Positions 21,942-62,670 are shown, counted from the first letter of the stretch. The stretch is DNA of 64,000 nt from Acidimicrobiales bacterium (GCA_965216685.1 OZ244195.1:87780-151779); one strand, 5' to 3'. Made by a program: numbers and translations. Notes: a model not told the origin generated them from the letters alone.

Positions 21942-23207
21942 TCAGTCGGGCCGGGGCCAGACCACGACTCGACGGCCGACGTAACCGACCCGAACCTCAT
22001 CGCCGGGACGGTACGACGAGTCGGTGGTGCGCACCAACAGGATGGCGCTGCCACTTTCAACCTGGTAGAGCACATCGTGACCGAAATACTCGGCCGACTG
22101 CACAACACCGACGACACTGCGGTCGGAGTCACCGCGTTCGGATTCACTGCGTTCGGATTCACTGCGTTCGGATTCACTACGGTCGGATCCGGGGCCGGCG
22201 ATCTCCAACTGCTCGGGGCGGATCAGCACATCGACCAGGGTTTGACCGGGGTCGGCAACACCGCCGGCCGCCCCACCATCGCCGGAGGAATCGACCACCA
22301 CGGCCTCGTGATCACCGAACGGGGTATTGACCAACCCGATATCGGTCCCGGTTGACGGCCCGGCGCTGAGGCGACCCGACACCAGATTGACCTCACCCAC
22401 GAAGTCGGCCACCCATCTATTGCGGGGACGATCGTAGAGCTCGGTGGACGGCCCGACCTGCACCAGGACCCCTTCTCGCATCAAAGCCACCCGATCGGCG
22501 AACACAAAAGCTTCATCCTGATCATGGGTCACCACGATGGTGGTGATCCCGATCTGTTGCAGGATGCCCTTGACATCGCGACGGATCTGATTTCGCATAC
22601 CGGCATCAAGAGCGGAGAACGGCTCGTCGAGGAGCAGGACGGCCGGGTTGGGGGCCAGGGCCCGAGCCAGCGCCACCCGCTGCCGTTGGCCCCCGGACAA
22701 CGAATCAGGCAGGCGATCAGCCAGCTCCGACAACTCGACCAGGGCCAACATCTCGGCGGTACGCCGCTGTGGGTCGGTGTGGCCCCGCAGCCCGAAGGCC
22801 ACGTTCTCGGCCACTGTGAGGTGAGGAAACAGGGCACCGTGCTGGAAAACCATGCCCACCCGCCGTCGATGGGGCTCGGCGTGCACTCCGGGACCATCGA
22901 CCAGCGTGTCGCCGATGCGGATCTCACCGGCCGTTGGTTGCTGCAGGCCGGCAATGGCTCGCAGCAGCGTTGTCTTACCGCAGCCCGAGGGGCCCAGCAG
23001 CGACAGCGTCTCCCCGGGAGAGACATCGATCGAGACGTCGTGAAGGACGTCGGTGTCGGGCCGGTAGCCAACGGTCAGCCTCTCGACCAGTACCCGGGCT
23101 CGCCGCCCAGCCGACGGGCCGGCGTCGCCACCGTCGAATTCGGTAGCGGTGTCAGCACTGGACGAGGTCTCAGGGCTGGCGCTGTCGGGTCGGCTGTCCA
23201 CCAGCAC
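21942..23207 (-). CDS. Fe(III)/polyamine-type ABC importer ATP-binding protein (FbpC/PotA-like)
   Basis: Walker A GPSGCGKTT, signature LSGGQRQR and Walker B LLLDEP are present, with a C-terminal TOBE-like domain that carries an SERSE repeat insert. Confidence 0.8.
   Translation of the reverse strand: MLVDSRPDSASPETSSSADTATEFDGGDAGPSAGRRARVLVERLTVGYRPDTDVLHDVSIDVSPGETLSLLGPSGCGKTTLLRAIAGLQQPTAGEIRIGDTLVDGPGVHAEPHRRRVGMVFQHGALFPHLTVAENVAFGLRGHTDPQRRTAEMLALVELSELADRLPDSLSGGQRQRVALARALAPNPAVLLLDEPFSALDAGMRNQIRRDVKGILQQIGITTIVVTHDQDEAFVFADRVALMREGVLVQVGPSTELYDRPRNRWVADFVGEVNLVSGRLSAGPSTGTDIGLVNTPFGDHEAVVVDSSGDGGAAGGVADPGQTLVDVLIRPEQLEIAGPGSDRSESERSESERSESERGDSDRSVVGVVQSAEYFGHDVLYQVESGSAILLVRTTDSSYRPGDEVRVGYVGRRVVVWPRPD
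22119..22193. repeat. 15-bp tandem repeat (gcgttcggattcact): 3 perfect copies plus 2 degenerate flanking copies
   Basis: Perfect copies lie at 22134-22148, 22149-22163 and 22164-22178. The repeat is in frame (5 codons) and encodes ..SESERSESERSESER.. on the minus strand inside the ABC ATPase. Confidence 0.85.
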
Positions 23208-29143: not shown

Positions 29144-30106
29144 GTGAGATATCGGGCGGCCCAGGCCGTAGTCGCCTCCGGCCTGGTCGCGATCAGACTG
29201 CTACTGGGAGCCATGATCGTCGGCTCCCTTGTCGGCTTTGTCATCGGCTTTGCCACCCTCGCACCGGCCGCGGCCGAGGGCGAGGTCGTCATCGAGACCA
29301 TGGCCAACGGTGCCGAGGCCGACACCGCTCCCGGCCCCACCGTGGCCAGCGGCGAGACGGTCAGCCTCCGCTATGTCATCACCGTGGTGTCGAGCGAACC
29401 GCTGTGGGATTTCATCGTCGTCAACGAGAGTGGCGGGTCCAGACCCGACTGCGATGCCAATGGCGACGGACGACCGGACGGCACCAACGGCCATACCGGT
29501 CCCCTGTCGAAGGGCGACTCGTTCCTCTGCGTGGCCTCGGTTGTGGCCGGAGATCCCGGCGTGACGTTTTCCAGCGTCGGCCGGGTCAAAGCCTTCGACA
29601 ATGACCTGGCCGTGACCTTCACCCACGCCGACGCCGCCCACTACACCACAGCCGCCCGGCCCACATCTCAGCCTCCCACCACCCCTCCAACAACGGCAGC
29701 GCCGCCGACGACGCCGCCAACCACGGCCGCCCCGCCCACCACGGCGGCGCCGCTGACCTTGACCCCGACGTCGTCGGTGGCTCCGCCCTCGGACGCACCA
29801 TCATCCGAGGAGACATCAACATCGTCAACGGCATCGTCATCGTCGTCGTCGATTACCACCACGTCGCAGCCATCATCAACGTCGGTGACAGGATCGTCGA
29901 GCACCGATTCATCAGGGGCGACCACAAACCGGAGAGCCGAACCCATCGATGCCGTACCGACCGATGACCTGCCGTTCACCGACGACGACCCCCGACGGGG
30001 CCTGTCGTGGTGGTGGGTCCTGCTGGCCTTCGCCGCCGGGGGCTCGGTGGCCGCCATCGCCACCCACCGGTTGACGGACGAAAATGCGACAACCCCGGAT
30101 CATTGA
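29144..30106 (+). CDS. Pro/Thr/Ser-rich surface protein with N- and C-terminal hydrophobic anchors
   Basis: 320-aa ORF starting at a GTG. It contains PPTT(A)APPTT repeats, an S/T-rich tract and a C-terminal transmembrane segment (WWWVLLAFAAGGSVAAIA). Confidence 0.55.
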   Translation: MRYRAAQAVVASGLVAIRLLLGAMIVGSLVGFVIGFATLAPAAAEGEVVIETMANGAEADTAPGPTVASGETVSLRYVITVVSSEPLWDFIVVNESGGSRPDCDANGDGRPDGTNGHTGPLSKGDSFLCVASVVAGDPGVTFSSVGRVKAFDNDLAVTFTHADAAHYTTAARPTSQPPTTPPTTAAPPTTPPTTAAPPTTAAPLTLTPTSSVAPPSDAPSSEETSTSSTASSSSSSITTTSQPSSTSVTGSSSTDSSGATTNRRAEPIDAVPTDDLPFTDDDPRRGLSWWWVLLAFAAGGSVAAIATHRLTDENATTPDH

Positions 30107-30184: not shown

Positions 30185-31180
30185 CTAGCCCCAGCAGTGG
30201 CGACTGGCGTTCCACGGACGGGTACCGTCGCGCTGCCAGGTGATCAAGGCCGCCTCGTCCTGTTGGGCGTTGGTGGCATGATGGGCACGCGACACGCCGT
30301 AGCGAGCGGCATGGCCGTAGGCTTCCCAGCTCCCGGTTAGGAACTGGTAGGCCCCACGAGCCGACGACGACGGATTGGCGGCTTGATAGTTGCCGCCGGA
30401 CTCGCAACGACGGATCTCCAGCAGGATCGGGGGCACGAATACCCCGTGACCAGCATCGACGAATCCGTTCTCGGCTGCCGTCGTGGGGGCGGCCGTTGTC
30501 GGAGGCGCCGTGGTGGTCGTCTCCTCCACCGTTGTCGTCGTCTCCTCGACCGTGGATTCGGACACCTCGGTGGTTTCGGTCGAGCCGCTTGTCGTGGTGT
30601 CGTCAGCGGGAGCGGCAGACTGCTCCTCGTCCGACACCTCGACCTCGCCGGCCGTAGTCGTGGCTTCTGATTCGGTTGTCGGAGCCGCCGTTGTCGGGGC
30701 GGCCGTCGTGGTCGTTGCCTGCGTCGTCGGAGGTTGGGTGGTGGGCGCTTCGGTGGTCGGCGCCGCCGTGGTCGTGGTTCGACTACGGAACAGCACCAAC
30801 TCCGCCCGGGCCATCGTCTCCAGCTCCTGCAACGAGGACGACCAGCTATCCGACTCGTTCACCTCGAGTGAGCTGTCGGATACCTCGTATGTTGGTTCGG
30901 TGTATGTTGGCTCGGTGACGTCTTGCGATTCACCGTCGGTGTTTGGATCGATTGGCGCCTGGCCGGCAAAGACCTCAGCCGCCGGATCCCTTTCGGTTTG
31001 GGGAATGATCAGCAGGGCCGCTGCAACCACAGCGATGAGTGCCAACAAGCCGGCCCTACGCACCGTTTCCGGGCGAGGTGGTTTGCGCTGTTCCCACGTG
31101 TCTTGAATTCGTTCCTTTGCCTCTTCGAGCGCTTCTTGGACACGCGAAGAAGGAGGGGGGGAATACGAGTTTCCTACCAT
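30185..31180 (-). CDS. Membrane-anchored protein with a C-terminal Rpf-like transglycosylase domain
   Basis: 331-aa ORF with one transmembrane segment, T/P/E-rich linkers and a C-terminal CESGGNY...GAYQF...W motif. Confidence 0.65.
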   Translation of the reverse strand: MVGNSYSPPPSSRVQEALEEAKERIQDTWEQRKPPRPETVRRAGLLALIAVVAAALLIIPQTERDPAAEVFAGQAPIDPNTDGESQDVTEPTYTEPTYEVSDSSLEVNESDSWSSSLQELETMARAELVLFRSRTTTTAAPTTEAPTTQPPTTQATTTTAAPTTAAPTTESEATTTAGEVEVSDEEQSAAPADDTTTSGSTETTEVSESTVEETTTTVEETTTTAPPTTAAPTTAAENGFVDAGHGVFVPPILLEIRRCESGGNYQAANPSSSARGAYQFLTGSWEAYGHAARYGVSRAHHATNAQQDEAALITWQRDGTRPWNASRHCWG

Positions 31181-58878: not shown

Positions 58879-59567
58879 GGCTCGGTCCAGTCGACAGTCA
58901 GGCCGAGGCGGTCGGCCACGTCCTGCCATGCCCGCTGGGCGTTGGCCACGTCGAACCATTGAGCCTGCATGCCGAAGTCCCGGGCACCGTTCACGTTGAG
59001 CGGTTGGTCGTCGACGAACAGTACTCGATCGGAGGCGGCCCCGATGATCTCCACCGCCCGTTGGTAGGCCCGGGGATCAGGTTTGAGGATGTCGGTGTCG
59101 GAGCAGTCGACCAGATGGTCGAGCAGATCGAAGAAGCCGATTTTGGTGTGCCAGTGCCGACCGTGGAAGGCCCGCAGGTCGTTGGTCAGGGCCGAGACGC
59201 CGAAGCCGGCGGCGTGGGCGGCCCGGGCCATTGCCGCCGCTCCTGGTCGTATCAGGTCATCGCCCGGCGGGCTGTAGACGGCGGTCATGTACTCCCACAA
59301 CGGGAGTTCACGTCCGATCATGGTGCCGATCTCGGCTGATCGCCGGTGCCAGTAGTCCCGTTCGGTCAGCCCGTCGCCCGCCACCATGCGCTGCCAGAGG
59401 TCATCGGTCGCCGGGTCGAGGGGACCTTTCCAACCGAGGGTGCCGGGGGCAAGGCCGAACGCCGCCTCGGCCCGGTGGTGGAGCTCGACCGGGTTGAGTA
59501 CGCAGACACCGCCCAGATCGAGCAGCAGCACGTCAACGTCTCGGGCCTCCGGCCCGGGAAAGGTCAA
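58875..59567 (-). CDS. HAD superfamily hydrolase
   Basis: 230-aa ORF with motif I (LLLDLGGV) near the N-terminus and FVDD near the C-terminus. Its TTG 59567 start overlaps the IclR stop (TTGA). Confidence 0.6.
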   Translation of the reverse strand: MTFPGPEARDVDVLLLDLGGVCVLNPVELHHRAEAAFGLAPGTLGWKGPLDPATDDLWQRMVAGDGLTERDYWHRRSAEIGTMIGRELPLWEYMTAVYSPPGDDLIRPGAAAMARAAHAAGFGVSALTNDLRAFHGRHWHTKIGFFDLLDHLVDCSDTDILKPDPRAYQRAVEIIGAASDRVLFVDDQPLNVNGARDFGMQAQWFDVANAQRAWQDVADRLGLTVDWTEP

Positions 59568-60337
59568 GACTCGCCACCGCCCCGAAAACCCAGGCGGTGG
59601 GAGATCAATCCAGCGGCCCGCTGGACGGCTTGGGCGATCTGGTTCCGCAGCGGGTCCATTCGCTCGGCCGGTCCGGCCACGCTGATGGCGGCGATGGTGA
59701 CACTGCTTCCATCTCGGATGGGGGCGGCCACCGAAACGACGCCGACCTCCGATTCATGCCGGTTCTCGGCGTAGCCCTGACGGCGGATCTTGTCGAGCTC
59801 CTGTTTGAACTTGCGGGTCGAGGTGATGGTGTAGGCGGTACGTTTGGTCAGCTCGAGTCGGGCCAGGATGCGATCCCGCTGGTCGGGGGCGAGATTGGCC
59901 AACAGGGCCTTGCCGGTCCCGGTGCAGTGCACTTCGTTGCGGCGCCCGACGTCGGTGAACAGTCGCAGCGTGTTGGGGCTGTCCAGACGCTCGATGTAGA
60001 CGACGTGGAGGCCGTCGAGCACCCCGACCTGCACGGTCTCGCCGGTCCGGTTGCGCAGCTCGGTCATGGGCAACAACACCGCCTCGTGCAGGTCTCGCTG
60101 GGTGGGCACGGCGGCGGCCAGGTCGTACATGGCCAGCCCCAGGCGATAGCGGCCCGACTCCGGATCCTGCTCCAGCATGCCTTCGTCGGTCAGTGTGGCC
60201 AGAATGCGGTGGACCGATGACTTGGAGATCCCGAGTTCGCGGGAAAGCTCGCTGACCCCCCACGTCGTGCGGGTCGACGTGAACGACTTGATCAACCGCA
60301 CGGCGTTGGTAACCGAGGTGAGCCGATTACCGGACAT
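59564..60337 (-). CDS. IclR family transcriptional regulator
   Basis: Only the 3' third of track ORF 59564..61717 is real. It starts at ATG 60337 (MSGNRLTSVTNAVRLI) or ATG 60382. It has a winged helix-turn-helix (ELSRELGISKSSVHRIL) and an IclR effector domain. Confidence 0.8.
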   Translation of the reverse strand: MSGNRLTSVTNAVRLIKSFTSTRTTWGVSELSRELGISKSSVHRILATLTDEGMLEQDPESGRYRLGLAMYDLAAAVPTQRDLHEAVLLPMTELRNRTGETVQVGVLDGLHVVYIERLDSPNTLRLFTDVGRRNEVHCTGTGKALLANLAPDQRDRILARLELTKRTAYTITSTRKFKQELDKIRRQGYAENRHESEVGVVSVAAPIRDGSSVTIAAISVAGPAERMDPLRNQIAQAVQRAAGLISHRLGFRGGGES

Positions 60338-60430: not shown

Positions 60431-61339
60431 ATGGGGATTCTCCGCCTGAGCCACGTCGACATCACCTGTCCCGACCTGGAACTGGCGGCCGCCTACTACA
60501 CCCAGGTCATGGGGCTCGACATCAGCGAGCGGACCGACGACCGGATCTTCTTCAAATGCTGGGACGAGCGCGACCACCACTGCCTGGCCGTCCGCCACGA
60601 CACCCGAGTCGGCATCGACCGGTTCGCCTTCAAGGTGGAGCAAGCCGATGATCTGGCCCACTTCGAGTCCCGGATCGAGGCAGCCGGTCACCCGGTACAG
60701 CGCATCGCCAAGGGTGAAGAGGTCGGACAGGGGGAGTCGATCCGCTTCGAACTCACGTCGGGTCATGAGATGGAGCTGGTGGCCGAGGTCGAGAAAGTCG
60801 GCGGCCGCCTCCCCCTGATCAACCCTCCGCCCATGGTCGACGGCCTGGTCGGCATCGCCCCACCCCGGATCGACCACCTGCTGGTTCACGCCGAGGAGGT
60901 GGCGGCGGTGGCCCGCTTCTTCCGGGAGGTACTGGACTTCCGGCTGACCGAGCAACTGCTTGATGGCGGGGGCCACCAGGTCATCGCCTTTCTGGAACGG
61001 TCGGCCAAACCTCATGACATCGCGTTCGTGCAGGGTCCCAACGGTGCGCTCCACCATTTCTCGTTCTGGCTCGACGACTGGGATCATGTTCGCCGGGCGG
61101 CCGACATCCTGGCCTATCACGGGGTCAGCATCGACATCGGCCCCACCCGTCACGGCCTGACCAGAGGCAACACCATCTACTTCTTCGACCCGATGGGGAC
61201 TCGCAACGAGGTCTTCACCGGGGGCTACCGACCCGATCCCGACTTCCCCACCATCACCTGGACCGAGGAGGAGGCGGGGCGGGCCGTCTTCTACTACGAA
61301 GGTGTCATCAATGAACGATTCGCCACGGTTCATACATGA
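60431..61339 (+). CDS. Extradiol ring-cleavage dioxygenase (catechol 2,3-dioxygenase family), copy 1
   Basis: 302-aa two-VOC-domain protein (MGILRLSHVDI...; HDIAF; HHFSFW; YFFDPMGTRNEVF). Confidence 0.85.
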   Translation: MGILRLSHVDITCPDLELAAAYYTQVMGLDISERTDDRIFFKCWDERDHHCLAVRHDTRVGIDRFAFKVEQADDLAHFESRIEAAGHPVQRIAKGEEVGQGESIRFELTSGHEMELVAEVEKVGGRLPLINPPPMVDGLVGIAPPRIDHLLVHAEEVAAVARFFREVLDFRLTEQLLDGGGHQVIAFLERSAKPHDIAFVQGPNGALHHFSFWLDDWDHVRRAADILAYHGVSIDIGPTRHGLTRGNTIYFFDPMGTRNEVFTGGYRPDPDFPTITWTEEEAGRAVFYYEGVINERFATVHT

Positions 61340-61740
61340 GAACGATGGACCCCAGGGAAACCAACCCAAACAACAGGAGTTTCGGCCCAGCCGAAACTCG
61401 AGGTGGCGGGCTCCGTCCCGCCACACCCATACATGAGAACGATGGACCCCAGGGAAACCAACCCAAACAACAGGAGTTTCGGCCCAGCCGAAACTCGAGG
61501 TGGCGGGCTCCGTCCCGCCACACCCATACATGAGAACGATGGACCCCAGGGAAACCAACCCAAACAACAGGAGTTTCGGCCCAGCCGAAACTCGAGGTGG
61601 CGGGCTCCGTCCCGCCACACCCATACATGAGAGTGATGGACCCCAGGGAAACCAACCCAAACAACAGGAGTTTCGGCCCAGCCGAAACTCGAGGTGGCGG
61701 GCTCCGTCCCGCCACACCCATACATGAGAACGATTGACCC
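61331..61740. repeat. 97-bp tandem repeat array: 4 complete copies plus 1 truncated copy
   Basis: Copies start at 61331, 61428, 61525, 61622 and 61719. The unit is CATACATGAGAACGATGGACCCCAGGGAAACCAACCCAAACAACAGGAGTTTCGGCCCAGCCGAAACTCGAGGTGGCGGGCTCCGTCCCGCCACACC. Each unit carries two perfect hairpins. Confidence 0.95.
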
Positions 61741-61752
61741 GATGGAGGACGC

Positions 61753-62670
61753 GTGACTGACGGTATTCTTCGCTTGTCCCACGCTGACGTGCGGGTTCCC
61801 GACCTGGAGCTGGCGCTGGCCTACTACGTCGAGGTCGTCGGTCTGGTGGAGACCGGGCGCAACGCCGACAAGGCCTACCTCAAGGGCTGGGACGAACACC
61901 AGCACCACTCGCTGATGCTCAGCGCCGCCCCCACCTACGGCCTCAACGGGCTGGCCTTCAAGGTCATGGAGCCGTCGGAACTCGACCGACTGGCGGCTCG
62001 GGTCGAAGCGGCCGGAATCGCCACCACCCGGCACCGCCCCGGTGAGCTCGATCCGGCATCGGGTGACATCGTGCGATTCACCGCTCCCAGCGGGCACATC
62101 GTCGACCTCGAATGCGGTCAGGGCCAGGTGGGCAACGGCCTCTCGCTGATCAATCCCCCTCCCCGGCCCGACAACCTGGTGGGCATGCACCCGCCCCGCA
62201 TCGACCATATCTTCCTGCTGTGCGAGGATGTCGACGGCGTCACCCGGTTCTTCTCCGATGTACTGGAGTTCCGGCTGACCGAGCAGATCCTGGCCGACGA
62301 CGGCCATCAACTCACCAGCTTCCTGGAACGTACCCACACTCCCCACGACATCGCCTTTCTCACCGGCCCCAACGGCGGTTTCCATCACCTGGCCTACTGG
62401 GTCGACGAGTGGAACGACCTGAAACACGCGGCCGACACCTGCGCCCACCACGGGGTGGAGATCGATGCCGGGCCGACCCGCCACGGGGCCACCCGGGGTT
62501 GCGGCCTGTACTTCTTCGACCCGGCCGGCAACCGCAACGAGGTCTACACCGGCGGATACTGGTTCGACCCCGACGACGAACCCACGACCTGGACCGAGTC
62601 GGAGATGGGGCGGGCCATCTTCTGTTATCGGGGCCAGGTCGACCAACGGTTCATGACGGTGCACTCCTGA
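61753..62670 (+). CDS. Extradiol ring-cleavage dioxygenase (catechol 2,3-dioxygenase family), copy 2
   Basis: 305-aa paralogue of 60431..61339 (MTDGILRLSHADV...; HDIAF; HHLAYW; YFFDPAGNRNEVY), starting at a GTG preceded by GGAGGA. Confidence 0.85.
   Translation: MTDGILRLSHADVRVPDLELALAYYVEVVGLVETGRNADKAYLKGWDEHQHHSLMLSAAPTYGLNGLAFKVMEPSELDRLAARVEAAGIATTRHRPGELDPASGDIVRFTAPSGHIVDLECGQGQVGNGLSLINPPPRPDNLVGMHPPRIDHIFLLCEDVDGVTRFFSDVLEFRLTEQILADDGHQLTSFLERTHTPHDIAFLTGPNGGFHHLAYWVDEWNDLKHAADTCAHHGVEIDAGPTRHGATRGCGLYFFDPAGNRNEVYTGGYWFDPDDEPTTWTESEMGRAIFCYRGQVDQRFMTVHS

Follow-up and report, generated by a model that had tools for sequence, protein, structure and literature searches.

Among the small repeats described from bacterial genomes, the closest analogue of the element reported here is the mycobacterial interspersed repetitive unit (MIRU) and the variable-number tandem repeats (VNTRs) that it forms. 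MIRUs serve to type tuberculosis strains. MIRU units of 40-100 bp are dispersed and also occur in short tandem arrays whose copy number varies between strains. They lie as spacers inside operons of Actinomycetota, they contain internal GC-rich inverted repeats and are bordered by short direct repeats, and their orthologous sites can be either empty or filled. An open reading frame (ORF) internal to the MIRU is coupled to the downstream gene at a spacing of -4, an arrangement thought to keep insertion as cheap as possible (PMC12548453, citing Supply et al. 1997; PMC3184786). Here we describe a comparable arrangement in a 64-kb stretch of DNA (hereafter the window) from an Acidimicrobiales bacterium, where a 97-nt unit is present in 4.2 copies between two co-oriented genes for catechol-2,3-dioxygenase-like proteins, diox1 and diox2. 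We conclude, with a probability of roughly 80%, that this array arose recently and in place, by tandem amplification of a single copy of a dispersed, non-coding repeat of ~100 nt, and that as a VNTR it is probably unstable to this day. No published description of this repeat family of the Acidimicrobiales was found, and it is previously undescribed.

The likeness to MIRUs is one of architecture, in a host that belongs to the Acidimicrobiales, and strict membership in a MIRU sequence family is not claimed. Beyond the tandem units, the internal inverted repeats, the bordering direct repeats and the empty and filled orthologous sites, the present array appears to vary in copy number, with a unit dose, by unitig depth, of about 3.6-3.8 in three sequencing runs (X2-X4) versus about 1.8 in a fourth (X1). 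Small ORFs that overlap the flanking stop and start codons at a -4 spacing are also present (in the window, at both ends in a relative's locus, L001, and at the diox2 start in another, L004). However, the host class is the Acidimicrobiia and not Mycobacterium, the bridging ORFs are confined to the dioxygenase locus instead of being family-wide, roughly one copy in three does not share the orientation of its neighbours, and the border repeats are 6-24 nt long and often contain CTAG whereas those of MIRUs are tetranucleotides.

Two additional groups of repeats share some of these properties. The repetitive extragenic palindromes and bacterial interspersed mosaic elements (REP/BIME) of Gammaproteobacteria are GC-rich hairpins that often occur just 3' of genes and in tandem clusters, and a stabilising effect on upstream mRNA has been reported for them. 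Their mobilisation is thought to depend on HUH (RAYT) enzymes that act on single-stranded hairpins, a route that would suit the strand-specific G.U/G.T evidence described below. The present family differs in having no conserved GT[AG]G at the hairpin foot and in its ~100-nt unit with two unlike hairpins and a 45-nt unstructured 5' part. Pneumococcal BOX, RUP and SPRITE elements, as well as repeats such as Correia and ERIC that are MITE-like (MITE, miniature inverted-repeat transposable element), are likewise small, non-coding and modular, and they are transcribed along with the genes next to them. Internal modules of BOX are repeated in tandem, and SPRITE has a bias to gene 3' ends. The family described here differs from this group in having neither terminal inverted repeats nor a fixed target-site duplication, in having no + strand terminator-type U-tract, and in being unrelated in sequence and host. 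The locus extends a MIRU-type phenomenon (a hairpin repeat at a gene junction, a VNTR and coupling ORFs) past Mycobacterium to an uncultured and environmentally abundant class of Actinomycetota. Its interest rests on a series of empty, one-copy and multi-copy junctions in a coupled operon, on clean covariation, and on CTAG-linked borders of variable length.

The tandem array and its copy number

Tandem Repeats Finder delimits a head-to-tail array on the + strand at 61331-61740 (period 97, 4.2 copies, 98% matches, score 799) that is by far the strongest in the window and that is also evident from comparison of the copies and from unitig depth. Copy comparison places the full units at 61331, 61428, 61525 and 61622, followed by a 22-nt partial copy at 61719-61740. 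Units 1-3 are identical to one another, while unit 4 is marked by a sole difference, an AC to GT change at 61633-61634 that is contained in an exact unitig (61603-61664) from run X1. The partial fifth copy has a single mismatch (G to T at 61735) and is followed by GATGGAGGACGC and then by the GTG start of diox2 at 61753. Every unit opens with the 9 nt CATACATGA (CAT ACA TGA), which correspond to the final two sense codons plus the stop codon of diox1 (60431-61339). A first-pass annotation, made from the sequence alone, had proposed the position and near-identity of the array, the variant fourth copy, a fifth copy ending after about 20 nt and an opening with diox1 codons, and all of these are borne out. 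Its view that this is not a clustered regularly interspaced short palindromic repeat (CRISPR) array is also upheld, as the units abut directly with no unique spacers of similar length between them. A plasmid collection searched with the 97-nt unit gave no match, and a profile of 21 family copies finds no second copy in the 64-kb window. Copies 1-3 have only one stop codon over all three + strand frames, the GT change in copy 4 creating a second TGA, and long ORFs therefore cross the array. Annotation of this region calls for caution since these ORFs are not genes.

The sequence of the window is present as short-read-style unitigs in four public runs of one sample (X1-X4), with runs X5-X7 yielding small gene fragments alone and no repeat. 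In X2, X3 and X4 the region consists of exactly four unitigs, one for each flank, one of 113 nt for the unit cycle and one of 44 nt for the junction between units. The unit cycle has a depth of 39.1 in X2 (flanks 11 and 9.5), 25.3 in X3 (flanks 8.3 and 5.9) and 113.5 in X4 (flanks 30.9 and 32.7), which in each of these runs amounts to a unit dose of 3.6-3.8x with the junction at about 2x. Thus, the multi-copy state of the array is real and not an assembly artefact, and the single-copy state that would have spoken against the first-pass annotation is contradicted in three runs. In X1 the flanks have a depth of 42-43, the exact GT-junction unitig is present at 24.4 (0.57x), and doses of 0.63x for the internal AC junction and of only 1.8x for the unit body are seen. 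X2-X4 are devoid of GT-variant k-mers. The array appears to be polymorphic, with mean copy number and presence of the GT unit differing between runs. Near-identical copies, together with a dose and variant content that differ between runs of one sample, support the earlier suggestion of a recent and unstable expansion.

A dispersed family of hairpin repeats

Both of the perfect stem-loops proposed for each unit are present in all four full copies and at no other site of the window, where 0.01-0.02 matches (with up to 3 mismatches) are expected by chance. Pattern search and folding place hairpin 1 of unit 1 at 61377-61399 on the + strand, with a CCA loop and a stem (GAGTTTCGGC/GCCGAAACTC) of 10 bp and not the 8 bp that had been assigned to it, and this hairpin recurs at 61474-61496, 61571-61593 and 61668-61690. 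Hairpin 2 of unit 1, located by the same means at 61403-61424 (+ strand), has an 8-bp stem (GTGGCGGG/CCCGCCAC) and a CTCCGT loop and recurs at 61500-61521, 61597-61618 and 61694-61715. Folding as + strand RNA gives -36.5 kcal/mol for one unit (z = -4.0) and -190.5 kcal/mol for the array in full (z = -6.65), the - strand of the unit folding less exceptionally (z = -1.7). A scan for intrinsic terminators found no + strand sites and no U-tract after either hairpin. Each of the four units does have a terminator-like site on the - strand, formed by hairpin 1 and the CTGTTGTTTG that follows it (4 found versus 1.3 expected). No - strand gene reads into these sites, and the T-rich tail is specific to the flank of this subfamily.

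When species-representative genomes were searched with a degenerate pattern for hairpin 1, 25 loci were recovered, about 21 of them in metagenome-assembled genomes (MAGs) of the Acidimicrobiales/Acidimicrobiia. At least seven family loci are in the genome of the closest relative (CBDCGK01), whose diox2 is 89.5% identical to that of the window. The 21-copy profile aligns over about 110 nt of every copy and located further ones in the retrieved loci. Additionally, at least 15 unitigs of the sample's metagenome match the family core, 14 of which continue into unrelated flanks, with depths like those of the relative and of less abundant members of the community. A metagenome scan added few new copies, most matches duplicating MAG contigs. 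The 5' part of the element, ~45 nt of weak conservation, reads approximately CTAG-nn-CCTTGGGG...GTGAAC...CAAGTTCAGG and is followed by hairpin 1 (the conserved module of the family), GA, and a second hairpin of type A or type B. Type A, as found in the window, is GGCGACGGG-CTCCGT-CCCGTCGC and type B is GGCGC-TCC-GCGCC-GAAGCCG. A purely target-derived origin of the left 45 nt is ruled out as this part aligns between unrelated loci.

Tandem copies are not restricted to the dioxygenase locus. The genome of the closest relative contains arrays at L009 (period 100, 2.6 copies, 99% matches) and at L019 (period 103, 2.2 copies, 99% matches), the units of which include locus-specific gene ends, and these two further short arrays indicate that tandem amplification is a recurrent behaviour of the family. 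The first-pass annotation had asked whether the unit is dispersed or local. Copies at many loci in other genomes, at least seven of them in the closest relative, show that it is dispersed in the genomes of relatives, and the presence of locus-specific gene-end sequence in the units supports the proposal of a REP/MITE-like element amplified in situ.

Covariation was computed on 11 type-A copies. The hairpin-1 stems are fixed by the search pattern and are uninformative in this respect, while the pairs of hairpin 2 are free of ascertainment bias because this hairpin was outside the pattern. Standard pairing is found in 100% of stem cells of both hairpins. One position of hairpin 2 is A-U in 6 copies, C-G in 3 and G-C in 2, and another is C-G in 10 and U-A in 1. 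The covariation score was reached by none of 500 shuffles, and slid controls fall to 27-50% pairing. Two one-sided changes, one in each hairpin, form G.U on the + strand and would be A.C on the - strand. Type-B hairpins also contain compensated pairs (L009, L026). The compensatory pairs and strand-specific G.U pairs argue that a single-stranded structure of the + strand, either RNA or DNA, is under selection.

The borders of the element are marked by significant direct repeats of 6-24 nt, often containing CTAG, that begin 44-51 nt before hairpin 1 and recur right after hairpin 2. A simple fixed target-site duplication is ruled out as the source of these repeats by their variable length at fixed positions. 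Local alignment of the left end with the reverse complement of the right end revealed no significant terminal inverted repeats in 16 of 17 copies (P > 0.05), the sole shared end sequence being the palindromic CTAG itself. Judged by its sequence, the element therefore lacks two hallmarks of a MITE, terminal inverted repeats and a target-site duplication of fixed length. The REP tetranucleotide GT[AG]G is absent from the hairpin foot as well, hairpin 1 being preceded by (C)AGG and hairpin 2 by CGAGG or CGAAG. Among the 13 copies with a callable upstream gene, 9 are co-oriented with that gene and have its stop codon in the left repeat; the remaining copies are antisense to genes or lie between divergent genes. 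The association with CTAG and stop codons and the variable length of the border repeats point to a mobilisation mechanism that is still unexplained.

Several features of individual copies were also noted. The type-B copies L011 and L024 have an extra small hairpin between hairpin 1 and the second hairpin (caactcggagagttg in L011, tttcgccgaaggcgaga in L024), which shows the element to be modular. Outside the family, the hairpin-1 palindrome, (C)GAGTTTCGGC...GCCGAAACTCG(A), is found at L006:254-285, L023, L038, L040, L029:13657-13753, L035 and L045:805-896. These palindromes are paired with quite different second hairpins and sometimes occur as two modules ~63 nt apart (L045, L029), and one case is in a Burkholderiales MAG; they may represent a wider shared module or convergence. 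A right flank, CTAGCCTTGAATGGTTC, is common to L009:2130-2160 and L026:1100-1130 from different MAGs, and represents either orthology of the two sites or the beginning of a further, degenerate copy of the element.

The dioxygenase junction and explanations for the array

Locus comparisons built on dioxygenase homologues reveal that the diox1-diox2 junction exists in several states. It is filled in the window (413-nt spacer, 4.2 copies) and, by one copy, in the two loci with the most similar diox2, L001 (89.5% identity, 115-nt spacer) and L004 (87.6%, 99-nt spacer). Six relatives have an empty junction: L048 (85.6%, +14 nt), L002 (84.6%, +14 nt), L054 (82.6%, -1), L055 (82.6%, +10 nt), L050 (81.0%, -4 overlap) and L003 (80.7%, +11 nt). 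This distribution fits a single insertion, into a tightly coupled pair of genes, in an ancestor shared by the three closest genomes. In L048 the empty site, CACACCTAGGAA, has the same sequence as the element's right junction in L001, and the target therefore had CTAG where diox1 stops. Two forms of the border repeats, CAYACCTAG... and CAYACATGA..., are arranged differently in L001, L004 and the window, a distribution that suggests repeated recombination between borders. The borders of the window array are identical at 21 of 22 positions. Because its units contain diox1's own codons, the array arose from local duplication and not from repeated insertion. The natural series of empty, one-copy and about 2-4-copy junctions offers material for testing how operons are kept functional after a structured insertion, and such arrays could act as strain-resolving markers in metagenomes.

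Overlapping stop and start codons form a chain on the + strand that leads from diox1 to diox2 across the array (ATGA, ATGA, ATGA, GTGA). Bridging ORF A (61336-61533, 65 codons) has an ATG that overlaps the diox1 TGA (61337-61339) and a TGA (61531-61533) that overlaps the next ATG. Bridging ORF B (61530-61727, 65 codons, TGA at 61725-61727) has the ATGA overlap at both ends, and bridging ORF C (61724-61756, 10 codons, MRTIDPMEDA) ends in a TGA that overlaps the GTG start of diox2. The GGAGGA Shine-Dalgarno sequence is at 61744-61749. In L001 a 40-codon ORF has an ATGA overlap at both ends, and in L004 an ORF across the element ends in ATGA at the diox2 start. The core of the element has 0-1 stops on the + strand in copies of the dioxygenase locus versus 1-5 in the other 16 copies. 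A conserved peptide is ruled out, since the element is read in different frames in the window, L001 and L004 and Pfam gave no match to the 65-aa ORF. The first-pass annotation was therefore correct in excluding a conserved protein, but its argument from the rotating frame overlooks the overlapping chain. A relay as a family-wide trait is ruled out by L022, L025 and the stop counts. Evidence for selection on the bridging ORFs is weak, and by analogy with MIRUs we infer that a relay would be the most likely way in which the array is tolerated. With a unit length of 97 nt (1 mod 3), an even copy number brings the relay to the diox2 start (GTGA) while an odd number ends it at the TGA of GATTGA, 15 nt upstream. 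If the relay is true, an effect of copy-number parity on diox2 is predicted.

We favor the following sequence of events. The element entered the junction of the tightly coupled dioxygenase genes in an ancestor that this organism shares with the two nearest relatives known, and there it is flanked by direct repeats that hold the end of diox1. Unequal recombination or replication slippage between these repeats would then have generated 97-nt units that each carry the diox1 stop region. The array would be co-transcribed with the operon, and the small-ORF relay may let ribosomes cross it, melt the hairpins and reach the diox2 start, an arrangement that has been proposed for mycobacterial MIRUs. 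The hairpins may also protect the upstream mRNA or damp downstream expression, and they may be kept because propagation of the element, or a role at the RNA level, needs a single-stranded + strand structure.

Several points weigh against this scenario. Dispersal is seen in the genomes of relatives, while the window, which covers 64 kb of its own genome, has no second copy. The estimates of polymorphism are mean depths of unitigs and not spanning reads, and coverage bias in X1 could distort dose; such bias cannot, however, account for the presence of GT k-mers in X1 and their absence in X2-X4. L022 and L025, which also lie between co-oriented genes, carry stops inside the element and have no bridge. 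By chance, one in three frames ends on an ATGA-type start, and the three filled loci are orthologous. Finally, co-transcription, the relay and any effect on diox2 are all steps that we infer.

Amplification of a dispersed repeat can be joined with the features of its borders and hairpins in a broader reading, which we regard as tentative and unlikely. The family would then be an undescribed small mobile element that homes to CTAG/stop-codon sites at gene ends via a single-stranded, hairpin-bearing intermediate, by a mechanism that is HUH/rolling-circle-like or retro-like rather than cut-and-paste. A variable repeat (6-24 nt) of the element's 5' end or of the target would be left behind and would subsequently seed tandem amplification. 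Elements in operons would survive by carrying or evolving a translation relay, and copy-number parity would serve as a switch for downstream expression.

A different explanation, which we judge to be unlikely, is that the array is a selected cis-regulatory or structured-RNA device (a stabiliser, a processing site, an attenuator or a small RNA (sRNA) array) that sets the diox1:diox2 ratio, with copy number providing tuning. Such a device would be consistent with the strong + strand folding (z = -4.0 per unit and -6.65 for the array), with compensatory changes and G.U pairs on the + strand only, and with the location of 9 of 13 copies just 3' of a gene in the same orientation; an influence on mRNA stability and expression is also reported for REP/BIME and BOX elements (PMC3184786). 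However, Rfam covariance models, a check that the first-pass annotation had named, gave no match in the array at a permissive threshold (E up to 10), and neither hairpin is followed by a + strand U-tract. Some family members are antisense to genes or between divergent genes, six relatives have the same operon with a junction of -4 to +14 nt and no element, and propagation of the element explains conservation of the hairpins equally well. The option of a dedicated sRNA or riboregulator array specifically is unsupported, given the missing Rfam match and family copies in both orientations relative to neighbouring genes.

We give little credence to a third explanation, in which the element is a classical MITE moved by a transposase and built up the array by inserting repeatedly at its own target site (such as IS630-like insertion at CTAG that duplicates TA). 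CTAG is found at both ends of many copies (L008, L014, L016, L021, L022, L024, L025, L026) and at the diox1 stop in the empty site of L048, and the contrast between empty and filled junctions is a sign of insertion. Yet there are no terminal inverted repeats beyond the palindromic CTAG, the flanking direct repeats (6-24 nt) have no fixed length, and no autonomous partner was seen, the whole genomes of the clade not having been scanned for one. Units of the window array and of L019 contain coding sequence of the gene upstream that is specific to the locus, and repeated insertion cannot account for this. Lastly, an assembly artefact (a collapsed or inflated repeat) or a protein-coding repeat is very unlikely, for while near-identical repeats are a classic source of misassembly and long ORFs do cross the array, unit-to-unit junction k-mers (about 2x) and a 3.6-3.8x unit dose are present in three independent runs, the GT variant is backed by an exact unitig, the source contig is 5.39 Mb with a relative's contig name suggestive of long-read assembly, and the frames that differ in the window, L001 and L004, with a 65-aa ORF that has no Pfam match, encode no conserved peptide.

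Flanking genes and other repeats of the window

The two proteins encoded on either side of the array, diox1 (302 aa, + strand) and diox2 (61753-62670, 305 aa, + strand), both have Pfam Glyoxalase and Diox-like_N domains and are 52% identical, and homologues are called catechol 2,3-dioxygenase by their sources. An exact look-up of both dioxygenases in public assemblies returned no record. Divergent from this operon is a gene for an IclR-family regulator (59564-60337, - strand; Pfam HTH_IclR and IclR_C), which is syntenic in all relatives. Genes of the FAA-hydrolase and HAD-hydrolase families lie beyond the regulator on the - strand, and a histidine-phosphatase gene follows diox2. The order IclR, diox1, diox2, histidine phosphatase is kept in all relatives examined.

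Additional observations concern these genes. At L002:2200-2670, on a contig of 2x coverage, the diox1 call is just 156 aa long and a further 102-aa ORF lies upstream on the - strand, which probably reflects a frameshift or sequencing error and not a real truncation. A single 175-nt contig (depth 74.7) from run X6, which is labelled as a different organism, matches 61747-61921 exactly, at the 5' end of diox2, and no other part of the region; it may be an amplicon or may stem from contamination. Rfam also gave an Actino-pnp match below threshold at 61992-62038 on the - strand, inside the diox2 coding region (22 bits versus a gathering score of 47.7, E = 0.18), which is probably due to chance.

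Elsewhere in the window, a second, smaller tandem repeat at 22115-22188 consists of 4.9 copies of a 15-nt unit (CACTGCGTTCGGATT; 89% matches, score 113) and, its period being a multiple of 3, may be a coding pentapeptide repeat. Short periodic repeats are clustered at 29675-29966 and 30508-30917, with periods of 6, 12, 15, 18, 21 and 30 that are all multiples of 3, which suggests a low-complexity repeat protein.

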